A DNA stretch of 64,000 nucleotides from NCBI GenBank assembly GCA_963845755.1, contig CAWJTV010000047.1, positions 96,001-160,000 of the forward strand. Reading direction: 5' to 3'. Positions 12,765-24,589 of the stretch are shown here, piece by piece. Every line of letters begins with the position of its first letter. Position 1 is the stretch's first letter. The DNA comes from an uncultured Planctomycetota bacterium. GTDB lineage: Bacteria > Planctomycetota > Planctomycetia > Isosphaerales > Isosphaeraceae. The notes beneath the pieces are model-generated. The model made no database searches. It had not been told where the DNA came from and saw only the letters and a program-made list of their open reading frames with translations. The translations under genes were made by a program, and so were the position numbers.

Positions 12765-13775
12765 CTATTCCGGATTGCGAGACGCCTCAGCATTCAGGTC
12801 GCCGCCGTGCACGAACTCGAACCCGAACCGCCCCTTGATGCAGAGGTGGCCGCGCGTGACCTCGACATCCATCGGCGAGGTCACCTTGACAATCCGGTTT
12901 TCCTGCACGTGGAGCGACAGCGTACAGCCGACTCCACAATAGGGACAGATCGTGTCGGTCTTCCTTTGCCGCGACTCGTCCCACGAGCCGGCCTTGCGCA
13001 TTTCATACTCGCTGCGAAACATCAGCGCCCCGGTCGGACAGACGCCAATGCAGTTGCCGCAGTAGACACACGCCGAATCGGGCAGCGGAACCGCGGCTTC
13101 GGTCGAGATCCTCGCGTCGAATCCACGGCCCGCCACCGCAATCGCGAACGTGTTCTGAGCATCGGTGCCACACGCCTCGACGCACTTGTAGCAGAGGATG
13201 CATTTCCCGTAGTCGCGAACATACAGGTCATTATCGACCTTGACCGGCTGGGCGACAGTCTCTGCGGTCGTCCCGTCAGAGGCGTGGTGATGGCCTGGTT
13301 CGCGATCATCGCGCGCCCCGGCATTTGCCGGGAGCATCGACGGCCCGTAGCGCTCCGGGCAAGCGCCGTAGCGCGCGGCGTATTCCCGGGCCTGGGGAGC
13401 CGTCGACAGGTCCACGGACGAGCCGAGGAACTCGAGGACCATCTTCCGCGCCAGACGGACGCGCGGCGTGTCGGTGCGGATTTCCATCGCCGGCTCGACG
13501 CGACGCGAACAGGCCGGGACCAGGGTCCGCGCACCGGCGAGTTCGACGACGCAGACGCGGCAGGCATTGACCGGCGTGAGGTTCTCGAGGTAGCAGAGCG
13601 TGGGCGTGTCGATTCCGCGCGACCGGCATGCGTCGAGGATCGTCGCGGAGGCCGGCACCAGGACCGGCTCACCATCGATGACGATCTCGAGGAGTGCGGG
13701 CTCCGGACGCCACGGAGGTGCCGGAAGCTCCCTGGGCGGCGGCGGTGATCGGAAGAAGATGGAGTCGTCGCTCAT
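12765..13775 (-). CDS. Formate dehydrogenase Fe-S subunit (2Fe-2S, 2x4Fe-4S and C-terminal molybdopterin-oxidoreductase Fe4S4 domain)
   Basis: PTLC..CRVC..PAC; CILCYKCVEAC; CVYCGNCIGVCP; TICPYCGVGC...LCIKGRFG. Confidence 0.9.
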   Translation of the reverse strand: MSDDSIFFRSPPPPRELPAPPWRPEPALLEIVIDGEPVLVPASATILDACRSRGIDTPTLCYLENLTPVNACRVCVVELAGARTLVPACSRRVEPAMEIRTDTPRVRLARKMVLEFLGSSVDLSTAPQAREYAARYGACPERYGPSMLPANAGARDDREPGHHHASDGTTAETVAQPVKVDNDLYVRDYGKCILCYKCVEACGTDAQNTFAIAVAGRGFDARISTEAAVPLPDSACVYCGNCIGVCPTGALMFRSEYEMRKAGSWDESRQRKTDTICPYCGVGCTLSLHVQENRIVKVTSPMDVEVTRGHLCIKGRFGFEFVHGGDLNAEASRNPE

Positions 13776-15646
13776 GACGGACTCTCCGATTCAGGTATTG
13801 GATCGAGCGTGGCCAGGGCCGACTCGATGGCACTGGAGGCGGTCTGTCCCAATCCGCAGATCGACGCATCGCGCATGACCTGGCCGATCTCCGCGAGCAA
13901 GGCCAACTCCTGGGCGCGACTGCCGATCATCCGGCCCGCCCGCAGTCGCTGCAACAGCTCTTCCTGACGCACAGTCCCCACACGGCAAGGGACGCATTGG
14001 CCGCACGACTCGTCGCGGAAGAAGGCCGCGATCCGCGCCAGGATATCTCCGAGCTCTACCGATTCGTCGAAGACCAGTATCACGCCCGAGCCGAGCGTGG
14101 CTCCGGCCGCGCGTGTTCCCTCGAAGGTCAGAGGCATGTTCAGCTTGTCCGGACCGACGAACACACCGGCGGCGCCACCGAGCAGCACCGCGCGAATCGG
14201 CTTCTCGCCCGGAACTCCGCCGGCCATCGCGATCAGCTCGCGAAGAGTGATGCCGAAATCGACCTCGTAGACGCCGGGCCGCGCCACGTGCCCCGAGACG
14301 CAGAAAAGCTTCGGTCCGCTGGACCCCGAGGTCCCGATGCCCGCATAAGCCGCGCCGCCTTGCATGAGGATCGGCGGGATGTTCACGAGGGTCTCGACGT
14401 TGTTGATCACCGTCGGCTTGCCGAACAGGCCGGATTGAACCGGGAAAGGAGGCTTGTTACGCGGCTCGCCGCGTCGACCCTCGATCGAGTTGAACAAGGC
14501 CGTCTCTTCGCCGCAGATATAAGCGCCTGCGCCGCGACGCAGCTCCACGTCGAACGTGAAGCCCGCGTTCTGGACGTTCTTACCTAGCCGGCCTGCGGCT
14601 CGGGCCGTGTCGATCGCCGCGGCCATCCGTCGCGTTGCGAGCGGATACTCTCCTCGCACGTAGAGGTATCCGCGCTCGCTGCCGGTCGCGAAGCCCGCGA
14701 TGCTCATTCCTTCGAGAACGGCGAACGGATCGCCCTCCATCAGGACGCGATCCTTGAACGTGCCGGGCTCCGACTCGTCGGCATTGCAGACAACGTAGTG
14801 AGGCCGGCCACTCGCTTTGGCCACGGCGTCCCACTTGCGTCCCGTGGGGAAGGCCGCACCACCTCGGCCCACGAGCTTCGAGGCCAACACCTCGCGAATG
14901 ACCCCGGCGGGGCCGATCTCGATCGCCCGGTCCAATGCGGCATAGCCACCCGAGGCGCAGTAGGCCTCAAGGCTCTCGGGGTCGATCCGGCCGATCCTGT
15001 GTAGCAGGCGAAGTGTTGGAGTGCCGGACTGCGGTACTGACCGTCGCATCGATTCGAAGTTAGCACCCTCGGCCGGGCCGGTAGAACCCCGCGCCGCGAG
15101 GATCTCGGCGGCTGTTGCCGGAGCGAGCGCGATCGCGCCGGGCAACTCGCCTGCATTCAGAACCAAGGCGGCCGGGGCCCGCTCACAAGAGCCCAGGCAG
15201 GGGCTGCGCTTCCAAGAACCTTCGCTTTCGTGACCGAGCGCCTGCTTCAGCTCGGCGCAGAGGTTCTCCGCCCCTTTGATCCGGCAGGCGATGTCGTCGC
15301 AGACGTGGGCGACGAACTGAGGACGCGGCGAGAGCGAGAAGAGGTGATAGAACGTGACGACTCCGTGCGCCTCGGCGGGCGGTATGGTCAGGCGCCGGCA
15401 GATGTAGTCCAGCGCGCCCGGCGGTATCCATCCGAACCGGGACTGGACTGCGTGGAGGGCGGGCAGGAGGAGATCGCGGCGGGACCGGGCCGCGTGGCCG
15501 CCGAGCGCGAAACCATGGCCTTCGGCCTCCACGTTCCGGAATCCACCGGCCCAGGCGGAGGTGGGTGGTCCCAGGACGGAATCGACGGCCGCTCGCTCGG
15601 TCGCCGTGGCTTCGGGGCCGTGAAAGTGAAGGTCCATCGTCCTCAT
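13772..15646 (-). CDS. NuoE-NuoF (FdsG-FdsB)-like fused NADH/FMN diaphorase subunit
   Basis: VCDDIAC...CLGSC; GRGGAAFPTG, NADESEPG, GAGAYICGEETAL, ESCGQCVPC...ICGLG. Confidence 0.92.
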   Translation of the reverse strand: MRTMDLHFHGPEATATERAAVDSVLGPPTSAWAGGFRNVEAEGHGFALGGHAARSRRDLLLPALHAVQSRFGWIPPGALDYICRRLTIPPAEAHGVVTFYHLFSLSPRPQFVAHVCDDIACRIKGAENLCAELKQALGHESEGSWKRSPCLGSCERAPAALVLNAGELPGAIALAPATAAEILAARGSTGPAEGANFESMRRSVPQSGTPTLRLLHRIGRIDPESLEAYCASGGYAALDRAIEIGPAGVIREVLASKLVGRGGAAFPTGRKWDAVAKASGRPHYVVCNADESEPGTFKDRVLMEGDPFAVLEGMSIAGFATGSERGYLYVRGEYPLATRRMAAAIDTARAAGRLGKNVQNAGFTFDVELRRGAGAYICGEETALFNSIEGRRGEPRNKPPFPVQSGLFGKPTVINNVETLVNIPPILMQGGAAYAGIGTSGSSGPKLFCVSGHVARPGVYEVDFGITLRELIAMAGGVPGEKPIRAVLLGGAAGVFVGPDKLNMPLTFEGTRAAGATLGSGVILVFDESVELGDILARIAAFFRDESCGQCVPCRVGTVRQEELLQRLRAGRMIGSRAQELALLAEIGQVMRDASICGLGQTASSAIESALATLDPIPESESPS

Positions 15647-17555
15647 TGAGCTCCCAGCCGCTCGACCCGGATTGCGGCGGCCTTGAACTCCGCGGTCCCC
15701 GACGTAGGGTCCGTGGCGTCAATCGTCAGGATATTCGTGGCGACCTCATCCTGGAAGTGAGGCGTCATGAACGTGAGCCCGGGGCGTAGGCCCTCGTCGA
15801 TGCGTATGGGGACCTCGATCCGACCCCGCCGCGAGGTGACTCGCACCACCTCGCCGTTCCGGACCCCGAGCCGGTCGGCGTCCTCCGGCGAGATGTCGAG
15901 GCTCTCGCCCCGGCGCATGGGCGAGGCGTAGCCCGAGGATTGCACGCCGGTGTTGTACTCGTCGAGCCGGCGCCCCGTCGTGAGCCGTAGCGGAAACTCG
16001 TCGGTCAATCGCTCGACCGGCGGGTCGTGCGCAACCGGGTGGAACGCGACTCTCGGGCCATTGAGCGGCCGCTCCCAGAGCCGGCTATGAAGAAACAATT
16101 CGCCCGGATGATCCTCGTCATAACAGGGCCACTGGAGCCCGTGCCGGGCTTCCAGGCGTGCGTAGCTCATCCCGGCGTAGGCGGGACAGAGTGTGCGCAC
16201 CTCGTTCCAGATGGTCTCGGCGTCCGGTTCGCCCCAATCGTGTCCCATCCGGTTCGCGAGGTCGAAGAGGATGCGGACGTCGTCCCGGGCGCCGCCGGGT
16301 GGGCCCAGGGCCTTCCGCACGCGCTGGACCCGCCGCTCGCTGTTGGTCACGGTTCCGTCCGATTCGCACCAGCCTGCCGAGGCCGGGAACACCACATCGG
16401 CCATCTCTGCGGTCGCGGTGAGGAAGATGTCCTGCACGACCAGGAAGTCGAGGCATTCGAGCCGATGCCGCGTCTGGACCTGGTCGGCTTCCGATTGGAG
16501 CGGGTTCTCGCCGAGGACGTAGAGGGCCCGGAAATCGCCCCGTTCCATCGCCTCGAACATCTCCGAGAGATGCCATCCGCGCGTCGCAGGGATCGACACG
16601 CCCCAGTGCCGCTCGAACTTCGAACGAAGCTCGTCGATCTCGACGTGCTGGAACCCGGGGAGCCGATCGGGGAGCGCGCCGATATCGCCACCGCCCTGGA
16701 CATTGTTCTGACCGCGCAACGGGTTGAGGCCGGATCCGTAGCGTCCCACGTGACCGGTCAGCAGAGACAGGTTGATCAGCGCGAGGACGTTATCGACCGC
16801 GTTGTGGTGCTCCGTGATCCCCAGCGTCCAGCAGATCATGGCTCGACCGGCCCTGGCGTAGGCGTGGGCCATCTCCCGGATCGACGATGCGGGGACCCCC
16901 GTCTCCCGCTCGGCGTAGGCAAGCGTATAGGGTTCCACGGCCCGCTGGTACGATTCGAAACCGGTTGTCGCCTGCGCGATGAACTCGCGATTCTCGAGTC
17001 CCGCGGCGATAATCTCGCGACCCACCGCATTGGCCAGCGCGATGTCGGAACCGACATCCAGGCCTAACCACGCATCGGCCCAGCCGCGGAGCTGGTCCGG
17101 CGCGGATCGATCGCGTAGAGACGGGCACCGTGATGGATGCCCTTGAGCAGGTGATGGAAGAAGATCGGATGCGTTTCGCGCGCGTTCGAGCCCCAGAGGA
17201 GAATCGTGTCCGTCTCCTCGATCTCGCGGTAGGAGCTCGTGCCCCCGCCCGCGCCGAACACCGTCGCCAGACCGGCGACACTCGGTGCGTGTCACGTACG
17301 ATTACAGCTATCGATGTTATTGCTGCCGATCACGACCCGCGCGAACTTCTGCGCGATGTAGTTCAGTTCGTTCGTGGTCTTGGAGCAACTGAACATCCCG
17401 AACGCTCGCGAGCCATGCCGCTCGATGGTCTGGCTCAGTCCACTCGCCGCGCGGTCGAGGGCCTCGTCCCAGCTCGCCGGGCGCAACGCGTCACCGTCGC
17501 GGACCAGCGGATCCCTCAGCCTGGCATATCGCCCCGCTTTGGTCTTGGTCTTCAT
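15643..17555 (-). CDS. fdhF: Mo/W-bisPGD formate dehydrogenase catalytic subunit, putative selenoprotein (Sec at TGA 17292-17294); apparent frameshift near 17085
   Basis: RLRDPLVR..ASWDEAL; NNIDSCNRT-U-HAPSVAGL; PLRGQNNVQG; DGTVTNSERRVQ; LTTGR; TAEFK. Confidence 0.9.
17250..17291 (-). promoter_or_regulatory. Putative bacterial SECIS hairpin immediately 3' of the in-frame UGA
   Basis: mRNA: UGA CA CGCACCGAG U GUCGCC GGUCU GGCGAC GGUG UUCGG CGCG; 6-bp upper stem, GGUCU loop, lower stem CCGAG/UUCGG. Confidence 0.72.
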
Positions 17556-17940
17556 CGTTCTCGTGCCGGTTGGAAGATGCGTGGGTAGGATACCGCCAGT
17601 TTCATTGTACGCGAATGAGGTCCGGACTCAAGCCGGCTTCTCGCGCGGCGGACCTGTTCGCCGGCACGGATTCGCAGCGAACTCGAAAGGCGATCGCTTA
17701 AATTGATTATATTTATATTAAAATATAATAAATAATTATTATAATGCGGTCCGGTATGTGCACGGGATGAACGGATTCCTCCGAAGCCGCGCGTGTTAGG
17801 TACGACGCGCGGTGCAGTCATCCCAGAGCATTCGCCACGGTTGTTCCGTTCGACGGTCTTGCCACGCCCCGACAATCGTGTTACCGAGAGAGAGGTGTCA
17901 CGGTTCAGACAACACGTGGGCAACGTTGAGGGGGACCCCG

Positions 17941-19075
17941 ATGAGCCAGATCGAGAAGATGTCTCGGAGCAGGGCGACGGACCAGGACCAGGCTACCACC
18001 GATCGTCGCGGGTTTCTGAGCGGAGCCGCGGCCGCGCTCGCGACGACCGCCATGGCCGCCGGCACCGCCGCCAGGGCCCAGACCCCGCGCCAGTACGGCC
18101 CACACGCCGAGCCCGTGCGCTATCCCGATCCCGACATCATGGTTCTCGACAAACGTTTCGCGAAGATCAAGATCGGTAACACTCCCATCCGGCGCCTGCA
18201 CACGGGCATGCTCTGGGCCGAAGGGCCGGCCTGGAACGGTGTGGGCAAGTATCTCGTCTGGTCCGATATCCCCAACGACGTCCAGCTCCGCTGGCTCGAG
18301 GATGACGGCCACGTCAGCGTGATGCGTCACCCGTCCGGCAACTCCAACGGCAACACCTTCGATCGCGAGGGCCGGCAGATCTCCTGCGAGCACGGCAACC
18401 GCCGGATGGTGCGCTACGAGCACGACGGCCAGACGACCATCCTGGCCGACCGCTTCGAGGGCAAGCCGCTCAACGCCCCCAACGACGCTGTCGTTCACCC
18501 CGACGGCGGAATCTGGTTCACCGATCCCGGATACGGCTCGCTCCTGGATTACGAAGGCCGCAAAGGAAAGCTCGAGATCAAGGAGGCCGTCTACCGGATC
18601 GACCCGACCAGCGGCAAGCTCGCCAAGGTCACCGACGAACTCTTCAAACCCAACGGCCTTTGCTTCTCCCCCGACTACAAGACGCTCTACATCGCCGACA
18701 CCGGCGCATCCCACTATCCCGAGGCGCCGCGCAACATTCGCGCGTATGACGTCGTCGACGGCACGAAGCTCGCGCGCGGACGGGAGTTCGTCTCGATGAA
18801 GATGTTCGACGGCCGGTGGCGAATTCGCCGGCTTCGCCGACGGCATCCGCTGCGACGAGGAGGGCAACCTCTACGCGGCCGGCGGCTGGGTCGGACCCGG
18901 CTACGACGGCGTCCACATCTTCGCCCCCGACGGCGTCCGGATTGGTCTGATCCTCCTGCCGGAGATCTGTGGAAACCTCTGCTTCGGAGGCCCCAAGCGG
19001 AACCGCCTCTTCGTGGTTGCCGGCCAGTCGCTCTACGCCGTTTACCTCGACACGCGCGGTGGCCATTTCGCCTGA
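17941..19075 (+). CDS. SMP-30/gluconolactonase family protein with Tat signal; apparent frameshift near 18810
   Basis: DRRGFLSGAAAA Tat motif; WAEGPAW, SNGNTFD, LNAPND, PNGLCFSPD; second frame ADGIRCD...NLCFGG. Confidence 0.9.
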
Positions 19076-19652
19076 CCACGAGTTCCTCTGAAACTGAGTT
19101 CCCGGAGGATCGCATACGTGCCTTCTGGAACCAGAACGCGAGCCCAGACGAGGTCCTCGGATCAGGCGACGGGCCTCCTTCCTCACGCGGCGGAGTCGCG
19201 CCCGGGAGTTGGCACATCGACTCGGGAACCCCTCTGTGACATAACACCCATTCGTTCCTGGATTTCGGGCGAAAAACCGACCGCACAGGATGGCGCTTTG
19301 TGGCAGCTTTTCGGACGATCTTCCGCGCTGGGTGCTCGATCTTCGACTCGCAGTGGGTCGGCGGAAACGGCAATCGTGGTCCGTGAGGATGGGAGGCGGG
19401 CCTACCTGAGATGGGGATGCCAGGCTGAGCGGAACCAGACCGCTCGCGCACACGCCACCCCCTAACTATTAGGATGCCACAGCTTTTCGAATCCGTTAAT
19501 GCACCTATCGAGAATTGGGCGCGGTTTCGAGTCACAACTCCTGGCGCGATTGAGATATAAAAATTTTCACAAAAAAAAGTAAGCGGTAGACTGTTTCCCC
19601 CGGACTGGAGCGTCGGTGGCTCCCGGGACCTGGGGCGGCGCGGCGGAAGACA

Positions 19653-23197: not shown

Positions 23198-23266
23198 ATT
23201 CCGGCCTCCCGATTGAAGTAACCGTAGGTCGGGCTGTCCAGCCTGACCCACTTTCCAGCCGCTATC

Positions 23267-23570
23267 CTAACGCGGCCTCCGGCCGCAACCCAAGAGGGAT
23301 TCCCGATTCGAGATTCCGGATTCCCGAAGAGGAATGATTCCGGAATCGGGAATCGCGAATCCGGAATTCGGAATCCCCAAAGGCGCGCACGGCGCAAGGG
23401 ATCCTACGGGGGAGAACTCTAACGCGGCCTCCGGCCGCAACCCAAGAGGGATTCCCGATTCGAGATTCCGGATTCCCGAAGAGGAATGGATCCGGAATCG
23501 GGAATCGCGAATCCGGAATTCGGAATCCCCAGATGCGCGCACGGCGCGGGGAGCCTACAGAGGAAGACAC
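23267..23570. repeat. Two tandem copies (152-bp period) of composite palindromic repeat family A
   Basis: Units start CTAACGCGGCCTCCGGCCGCAACCC at 23267 and 23419; GATTCNN heptamers followed by GAATCNN heptamers. Confidence 0.92.
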
Positions 23571-23572
23571 GA

Positions 23573-24589
23573 TCAGCGCCGGGCCGTCTCGGCATGCTGG
23601 TAGACAGCCCGGGTGATGTCCGCCACGAGCTTGTGGGCCCGCGGTGGCTCCTTGATCCCGCGCGTCAGGACGACCAGGACAAACGGCTTTCCCCGGGCCG
23701 GCTCGACGATCGCCGCGTCGTGATAGACCTGCCCGAACGCCCCGGTCTTGTGCGCGACGGTGACGCCCTTGGGCAGCCCGGCGGGGATTCCCTCGGCGAA
23801 CTTCTGACCGCGCAGAATCGCGATCATCTCCTCGGAAGCCTTCATGGAGACGACCTTCCGTTCGGCCAACTGCTTGAGGATCTGCATGAGGCCGCGCGGC
23901 GTGAGCGTGTTACTGAGCCCCCGCGCATACGCCTGATTGTCCTCGACGCCGCGCAGGACCCGGATGTTCTTGGCTCCGAGCTGCTTCATGTATTCCGAAG
24001 TCCGGGCCGCGCCGACTCGCTCCACGAGCATATTCGTGGCGACATTGCTGCTCTCGGTGATCATCAGCCGCATGAGCTCCCGGATGGTCAACCGCTCGCC
24101 CAGCCGCCGATAGAGGCCCGTCTCGGAGTCGTCCTCGACCTTGAGCAAGAACGGCTTCCCGTCGACGATGCTGGTAAATTCTTTTTTTACCGCCATTCGG
24201 TCGTCCAGGGAGAGCGTCTTATCCTCGGCCTGGCGAAACACCTCCATCATGACCGGCACCTTCATCGTGCTGGCCGCGTGAAACGTGTCATCCGCATGAT
24301 TGAGCAATTCCTCACCGGTCGCCAGGTCGTGGTAGGCCACGCCGACCTCTTCGGCGCCAGCAACGCGGATCAGCGCCTCGACGGCCTTGGTCAGAGCCTC
24401 GAGGCCGTTCGTGGGCTTGGCGGCATCTTGCTCGCTCGACCATCCCACGCGCGGCCCACAGCCGAGCCACGCCGACAGGACGCCGAGGCATACCCTGCGC
24501 GTCACAGAGGGCGGGTCGATCGAACGGTCCGACCGGGGAAACTCGTCGTTCGTTGGAGCAGTCGTATGGCGGATCTCGGAGCCAAGCAT
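23573..24589 (-). CDS. Serine hydrolase, class A beta-lactamase-like; start uncertain
   Basis: AASTMK (SxxK), ESSN (SxN), HKTG; possible twin-Arg signal TRRVCL. Confidence 0.85.
   Translation of the reverse strand: MLGSEIRHTTAPTNDEFPRSDRSIDPPSVTRRVCLGVLSAWLGCGPRVGWSSEQDAAKPTNGLEALTKAVEALIRVAGAEEVGVAYHDLATGEELLNHADDTFHAASTMKVPVMMEVFRQAEDKTLSLDDRMAVKKEFTSIVDGKPFLLKVEDDSETGLYRRLGERLTIRELMRLMITESSNVATNMLVERVGAARTSEYMKQLGAKNIRVLRGVEDNQAYARGLSNTLTPRGLMQILKQLAERKVVSMKASEEMIAILRGQKFAEGIPAGLPKGVTVAHKTGAFGQVYHDAAIVEPARGKPFVLVVLTRGIKEPPRAHKLVADITRAVYQHAETARR

Follow-up and report, generated by a model that had tools for sequence, protein, structure and literature searches.

A formate dehydrogenase gene with an internal UGA that almost certainly encodes selenocysteine, aided by a small conserved RNA hairpin

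Does the in-frame UGA that interrupts a formate dehydrogenase (FDH) gene in an uncultured Isosphaeraceae bacterium end the protein, or does it encode selenocysteine (Sec)? The codon lies on the minus strand of the window, the whole stretch of 64,000 nt that was analysed (Table 1), where an open reading frame of 87 residues (17555..17292) ends in NNIDSCNRT-TGA and the same frame then carries on HAPSVAGLATVFGAGGG. The initial annotation had placed this UGA at the active site of an FDH. The alignment agrees with that placement: the Sec/Cys column that ligates the metal in solved FDHs falls on the TGA, which is codon 88 of the catalytic subunit, and homology runs past it, the Pfam Molybdopterin match lengthening from model positions 1–80 without read-through to 1–149 with it. 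In addition, the Sec/Cys-His ligand motif and the active-site Arg of a TIGR01591-type alpha subunit are both present. The precedent that had been cited, a Sec followed by His in E. coli FdhF, is found in the fetched K-12 fdhF gene, where codon 140 is TGA and the next residue is His141. From these comparisons and those below, we conclude that the internal stop of the FDH gene is almost certainly read as Sec, aided by a small conserved RNA hairpin.

Homologues were compared at the same column. A close orthologue (72–90% identity) occurs in 7 of 60 related genomes, and all seven have TGA. A scan with an intact orthologue, taking one genome per species, confirmed 211 stretches, the best 80 of which were kept and gave 78 loci; three of these end before the Sec site, and the remaining 75 include one that is identical to the query. 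Within this best-80-of-211 sample, the Sec column is TGA in 73 of the 75 loci and TGC in two, both from Nocardiopsis, and in most TGA loci the frame stays open for ~550 codons beyond the TGA. The sample probably under-counts Cys versions, because its loci were the best 80 of the 211 by likeness to a TGA-type query. Carriers bear nine phylum labels (Acidobacteriota, Actinomycetota, Planctomycetota, Pseudomonadota, Dormiibacterota, Vulcanimicrobiota and three phyla with a single row each), and on a quick tree the window protein groups with named Isosphaeraceae and other Planctomycetota rows. This tree, which includes two rows with late frameshifts (L101 and L122) and a distant outgroup, was used for placement and for the clustering of compensatory changes, not to infer the direction of transfer or of Sec-to-Cys change. 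The short-read contigs that reach the TGA codon come from relatives and end beside it.

Downstream of the UGA, at nt 16–32 (the U of UGA being 1), the RNA is predicted to form the stem-loop GUCGCC-GGUCU-GGCGAC, with pair probabilities of 0.93–1.0 in 48- and 60-nt folds. Scoring this hairpin against bacterial SECIS models, as had been suggested, gave a divided answer. With its GGUCU loop, a stem of 6–7 bp and a spacing of 18 nt, it falls within the consensus rules set out in the accessible text of PMC13188914 (loop of 3–9 nt, stem of 4–16 bp, G in loop position 1 or 2, 16–37 nt from the UGA, MFE ≤ −7.5). The same rules, in our own coding, are not discriminating, since 361 of 2201 random TGA sites (16%; the genome is 64% GC) also pass them. 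The Rfam model SECIS_3 (RF01989) matches over its full length and in the right place, with 16.6 bits (E 1.8) against a gathering threshold of 63. The folding energy is unremarkable, with z = −1.70 for a 45-nt stretch and 12 of 200 shuffles as stable. Energy z-scores and the Rfam score were both rejected as proof of a SECIS, being too weak. Taken by itself, then, the hairpin would suit an alternative in which a Cys codon has mutated to a nonsense TGA and GC-rich coding sequence happens to fold into a hairpin, a reading favoured by the modest z-score and by the pass rate of random sites. That the hairpin goes beyond chance emerges through comparison with the orthologues.

Synonymous variation was examined in 67 TGA genes that have no other stop (69 of the 75 loci passed the filter, two of them TGC; two rows carry a late frameshift). 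Codons +5 to +9 after the UGA hold ranks 1–5 among 211 four-fold-degenerate columns for constancy of the third base, their third-base entropies being 0–0.26 bit where the median is 1.48. GGT encodes Gly+7 in 66 of the 67 genes, whereas the median share of GGT across 37 Gly columns is 12%. The third bases of codons +2, +3, +10, +11 and +13 to +17 are free, so the freezing is confined to the hairpin. Likewise, with the structure taken from the window's own fold, 99.0% of cells in the 6-bp stem are paired among 69 distinct sequences, a level reached by none of 500 shuffles and by none of the slid controls (16–81%). Two stem pairs show compensatory change (n = 2): C18-G30 becomes G-C in three sequences and C20-G28 becomes U-A in three. 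These six cells probably represent about three events, because their carriers cluster on the quick tree; of the two pair changes, one affects the amino acid sequence as well. In both TGC genes of Nocardiopsis, the loop U and the 18-30 pair are lost. From this pattern of substitution, we conclude that the predicted SECIS is under selection. The minimum-energy fold also has a long lower stem, which was rejected as a conserved element, being unsupported at wobble positions: 79.7% of its cells are paired, most of its wobble-position pairs are broken, and its pairing is mostly fixed by the protein; four of its pairs were retained in a further fold analysis. We note that in one locus labelled Nitrospinota (L084:7259–7306) the loop is GGGCU instead of GGUCU, with the TGA and the stem kept.

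The initial annotation had expected a hairpin like that of E. coli fdhF at this place. Its position and conservation stand; its identity as a copy of the E. coli element does not. GGUCUG occupies nt 22–27 after the U of UGA in both RNAs, and G23-U24 of the loop is present here, but G27 pairs with C20 in E. coli and with C21 in the window, a register shift of one base. A bulged U in the upper stem is important in SECIS elements of the E. coli fdhF type. The corresponding U17 takes part in a base pair in 67 of the 69 distinct rows, and the E. coli-type bulge is absent.

Reading the UGA as Sec had implied that the source genome (14.27 Mb in 49 contigs, 87.9% complete) encodes the Sec machinery, and selA, selB, selD and the tRNA-Sec gene (selC) were all detected. 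SelA is encoded on the same contig as the FDH (C47:43097–44299; 471.6 bits, cut-off 267.9), selD, in its Cys form, on C5 (376.2 bits, cut-off 125), and selB on C29, where its first piece scores 298.5 bits (cut-off 242.25) and its last piece contains the mRNA-binding winged-helix domain PF09107. The tRNA-Sec gene scores 78.4 bits (gathering threshold 47) and is the sole tRNA with a UCA anticodon among 102. Genes moaA, modA and fdhD are also found in the genome. Among 25 TGA genomes, comprising the seven relatives and 18 of the 73 loci hand-picked for spread, selB scores above the cut-off in 23 and was not found in two, one of which is 74% complete. SelA and selB were not found in either of the two TGC genomes, both Nocardiopsis, whose completeness is not given. 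The sharing of TGA across nearly all orthologous loci, a synonymous freezing limited to the hairpin, and sel genes that are present here and were not detected in the TGC genomes make a nonsense mutation with a chance fold extremely improbable.

We consider it just as hard to credit that the UGA is decoded as some other residue, either Trp through a changed code or Cys or Ser through a suppressor-like tRNA. Cys would suit the site, as the two Nocardiopsis genes illustrate. However, TGA terminates this same FDH gene and the next gene of the operon in ATGA overlaps, the only tRNA that could read it by a UCA anticodon is tRNA-Sec, and SelA and SelD are present. As a separate observation, sel genes adjoin the FDH operon in several alphaproteobacterial loci; selA, selB or selD does so in Afipia, Hyphomicrobium, Xanthobacteraceae and Mesorhizobium (L113, L115, L118, L121, L124 and L130), and on the quick tree the FDHs of these six loci fall together with the two Cys-type proteins of Nocardiopsis.

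The gene that contains the Sec codon does not encode a whole FdhF. The Sec assignment of codon 88 in an FdhF-like gene is upheld by the homologues and the sel genes; the likeness to FdhF stops at the N-terminus, where the gene starts just ahead of the RLxxPL motif and the [4Fe-4S] domain is absent. The missing Fe4S4 domain forms the C-terminal end of an Fe-S protein encoded two genes downstream, past a NuoE-NuoF fusion, the order being catalytic–NuoEF–FeS with ATGA overlaps. This Fe-S protein has the four cysteines and the equivalent of Lys44 of E. coli FdhF, and is without the motif for the His-ligated cluster of FdsA. In accordance with the split, the intact catalytic orthologue P0001 matches TIGR01591 at positions 52–672 and scores 654, just under the cut-off of 666.25, its Fe4S4 domain being absent. 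As in NAD-dependent FDHs, the catalytic gene is accompanied by NuoE- and NuoF-like diaphorase modules.

Table 1. Features of the FDH operon in the window (positions count from the first letter of the window)
Feature	Position	Strand	Basis
In-frame UGA, codon 88; predicted Sec, Mo/W ligand	17292..17294	-	Ligand-column alignment; TGA in 73/75 loci
FDH catalytic (molybdopterin) subunit, ~637 aa, without N-terminal Fe4S4 domain	15643..17555	-	Matches of intact orthologue P0001
Putative promoter-like consensus match, 9/12, ~50 nt upstream of the start codon	17604..17631	-	
Predicted SECIS upper stem-loop, 6 bp, loop GGUCU starting 18 nt after UGA	17263..17279	-	Fold; synonymous freezing; 99.0% pairing
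Longer predicted hairpin with lower stem (nt 6–14 with 37–45), weakly conserved	17250..17289	-	MFE fold
NuoE-NuoF fusion, diaphorase subunit ([2Fe-2S], FMN, [4Fe-4S]), 624 aa	13772..15646	-	ATG overlaps stop of catalytic gene (ATGA)
Fe-S subunit, 336 aa: [2Fe-2S], 2x[4Fe-4S], C-terminal Mo-proximal Fe4S4 domain	12765..13775	-	TIGR01591 positions 1–50; FdsA 20–303
One-base deletion shifting the frame, probably an assembly error	17084..17085	.	Gap against 6/6 aligned orthologues; short-read contig with extra base

The same layout recurs among the orthologous loci. None of the 69 loci with upstream room has an Fe4S4 match before the catalytic gene, NuoEF follows the catalytic gene directly in 74 of 74, and in 61 of 61 the Fe4S4 domain lies downstream, with a stop codon within 56–89 codons after it. 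No locus long enough to be judged has the one-piece alpha subunit that characterizes FdsABG and MeFDH1.

The read-through frame closes 76 codons past the TGA because of the one-base deletion near 17084. This deletion is probably an assembly error, since rpoB (one frame change) and rpoC (two), on C34 of the same assembly, are broken likewise, and a 151-nt short-read contig (run X4, record 28) has an extra base at the site and is otherwise identical to the window. The short-read support is modest, being a single contig at depth 2. In the assembly, selB lies in three frames (two breaks, C29), selA shifts near its 3′ end (C47) and moaA is frameshifted (C12); with these and the FDH gene itself broken, we infer, rather than read, an intact FDH gene in the source strain. 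As single-base indels are frequent and extend to essential genes, the broken frames of this genome are not to be called pseudogenes without reads. A genome-wide frameshift rate (8 changes in 31.6 kb) was set aside, because overlapping regions and antisense frames had been counted twice.

These breaks raise the alternative that the Sec codon is genuine in the lineage and the copy in the source strain is dead, the deletion or the selB breaks being real. The deletion does stand in the assembly, selB is in pieces, and a second TGA-containing FDH (at C9:260614) could stand in for the first. On the other hand, the essential rpoB and rpoC are broken in the same way, the short-read contig has the extra base over 151 nt of identity, the NuoEF and Fe-S genes are open, and the 3′ part of the FDH gene has a short end branch on the quick tree (0.076 against a median of 0.12), with no long branch. 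A dead copy is thus quite improbable. We hold instead, with high confidence and on sequence evidence, that the UGA and the hairpin represent the Sec codon and the SECIS of a working cytoplasmic, NAD-linked FDH operon with a split large subunit, the frameshift being taken as an error of assembly.

By analogy with known systems, SelD would supply selenophosphate and SelA would convert Ser-tRNA(Sec), as described for the E. coli pathway in the accessible text of PMC1794560. Recognition of the loop would then fall to the C-terminal winged-helix domain of SelB, which, bound to GTP and Sec-tRNA(UCA), would deliver Sec to the UGA. In the folded protein, Sec88 may ligate Mo (W being less likely) of the bis-PGD cofactor, and His89 and the RGQNN arginine would also belong to the active site. 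The three proteins would assemble into an MeFDH1-like enzyme, in which electrons would pass from formate to the Fe-S subunit, on to FMN, and finally to NAD+.

Among characterized enzymes, E. coli FDH-H (fdhF; PDB 1AA6) likewise has UGA at this column and His next to it, and the intact orthologue is 39% identical to it over 631 residues, with Arg333 kept. The [4Fe-4S] domain of FdhF, however, is part of the same chain, and FdhF acts together with hydrogenase 3; here the domain resides on a different protein, and NuoEF is the partner. MeFDH1 of Methylorubrum extorquens (Fdh1AB; PDB 7VW6, 7E5Z and 7XQW) is matched by all three window proteins, and the predicted cluster content of the operon is the same as that of MeFDH1, in which the alpha subunit contains three [4Fe-4S] and one [2Fe-2S] cluster and the beta subunit FMN, one [4Fe-4S] and one [2Fe-2S] (PMC13397495, accessible text). 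Unlike the window operon, which has Sec and an alpha subunit divided between two genes that flank the beta gene, MeFDH1 has Cys, W and a one-piece alpha subunit. In the FdsABG(D) enzymes of Rhodobacter capsulatus and Cupriavidus necator (PDB 6TG9 and 6TGA), NuoE- and NuoF-like modules are likewise found, and R. capsulatus FdsA is covered by the Fe-S protein (residues 20–303) and by P0001 (residues 307–931). FdsA differs in being a single chain that has Cys and contains an additional, fourth [4Fe-4S] cluster with a His ligand; the motif for that cluster is absent here. FdsG and FdsB are separate proteins but are fused in the window operon, where no fdsD was seen.

The Sec decoding could be right and the enzyme itself different, with W in place of Mo, operation in the CO2-reducing direction, or another substrate. 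We found no assay of any member of the split family in the literature, the cluster content resembles that of the W enzyme MeFDH1, and among solved structures the W-type HDCR FdhF matches best. Against this stand the equivalents of the FDH residues Sec-His, Arg333 and Lys44, all of which are kept, the presence of fdhD inside 30 of the 78 loci and elsewhere in the source genome, and the presence of modA; we regard a differing enzyme as unlikely. PF12849, which bears on the Mo-versus-W question, has one match in the genome. A probably Mo-type, formate-oxidizing enzyme remains our preferred reading.

Sec-containing FDHs as such are well documented. In the accessible texts, FdhA is described as the most widespread bacterial selenoprotein (PMC1794560 and PMC13188914), a mycobacterial Sec-FDH with a SECIS is reported (PMC13449736), and full sel sets occur in several Planctomycetes together with a Sec-fdhA operon that includes nuoEF (PMC4807772). 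A possibly comparable case is planctomycete P1 of the last of these sources, which has a full, scattered sel set and a nuoEF-containing operon with a Sec-type fdhA. In contrast to the layout here, that operon is stated to be shared with Plesiocystis pacifica only, and the accessible text does not describe a split subunit (PMC4807772). Sec-FDHs, including those of Planctomycetes, are therefore already published, and the unusual trait of this locus is a large subunit encoded as two genes. Certain locus tags of Streptomyces coelicolor may belong to such an operon, and the literature search found no paper on them. No description of the split layout was found in the literature covered, which includes few subscription journals.

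On balance we lean towards the view that the loci form a widespread, undescribed subfamily of NAD-linked Sec-FDHs in soil-type bacteria. Its catalytic chain would bind no Fe-S cluster, the proximal [4Fe-4S] cluster and the Lys44 equivalent would be supplied in trans by a separate subunit, and its SECIS would be an unbulged GUCG(C/U)C-GGUCU-G(G/A)(C/U)GAC element, unlike that of E. coli. The Sec codon itself is ordinary, and its practical value lies in annotation: formate oxidation is likely under-counted in such genomes, because gene callers truncate the gene at the UGA and the NCBIfam FDH cut-off narrowly excludes even the intact protein. Of greater consequence is the split layout, as the metal-adjacent cluster and the lysine would come from another polypeptide. 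In the accessible text of PMC12176258, this lysine is reported to be required for E. coli FDH-H to be active. Supply in trans would bear on the maturation of these FDHs and on their use for CO2 reduction. If the proposal is true, the operon would provide a naturally modular FDH, whose pterin module and electron wire could each be produced and swapped on its own, and would allow a direct test of what a SelB from outside the enteric bacteria recognizes.

Several minor observations were made along the way. The second FDH gene (C9:260614, minus strand, outside the window) is FdnG-like, ~27–31% identical, and has an in-frame TGA (ENQART-TGA-HSASVPGL). A possible 7-bp stem with a GGUCU loop lies at the same distance from this TGA and has two flipped pairs; in folds of 48 and 60 nt a competing structure prevails. 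Beside the FDH operon, the plus strand at 17812–19076 contains a divergent SMP-30/gluconolactonase gene with a Tat-like RRGFL leader, whose frame appears to shift near 18810, probably through another assembly indel. Between this gene and the operon, 50 nt at 17700–17750 are very AT-rich and partly palindromic, with promoter-like matches on both strands (three found against 0.4 expected), and may be a regulator site. At 23260–23600, short repeated units give GNPES and GIPDSRF words in overlapping ORF translations on both strands, by their look an intergenic repeat array. Elsewhere in the genome, tRNA genes are gathered in an array of ~36 genes within 3.4 kb (C41:590256–593662) and in a smaller, split set (C20:431840–451106).
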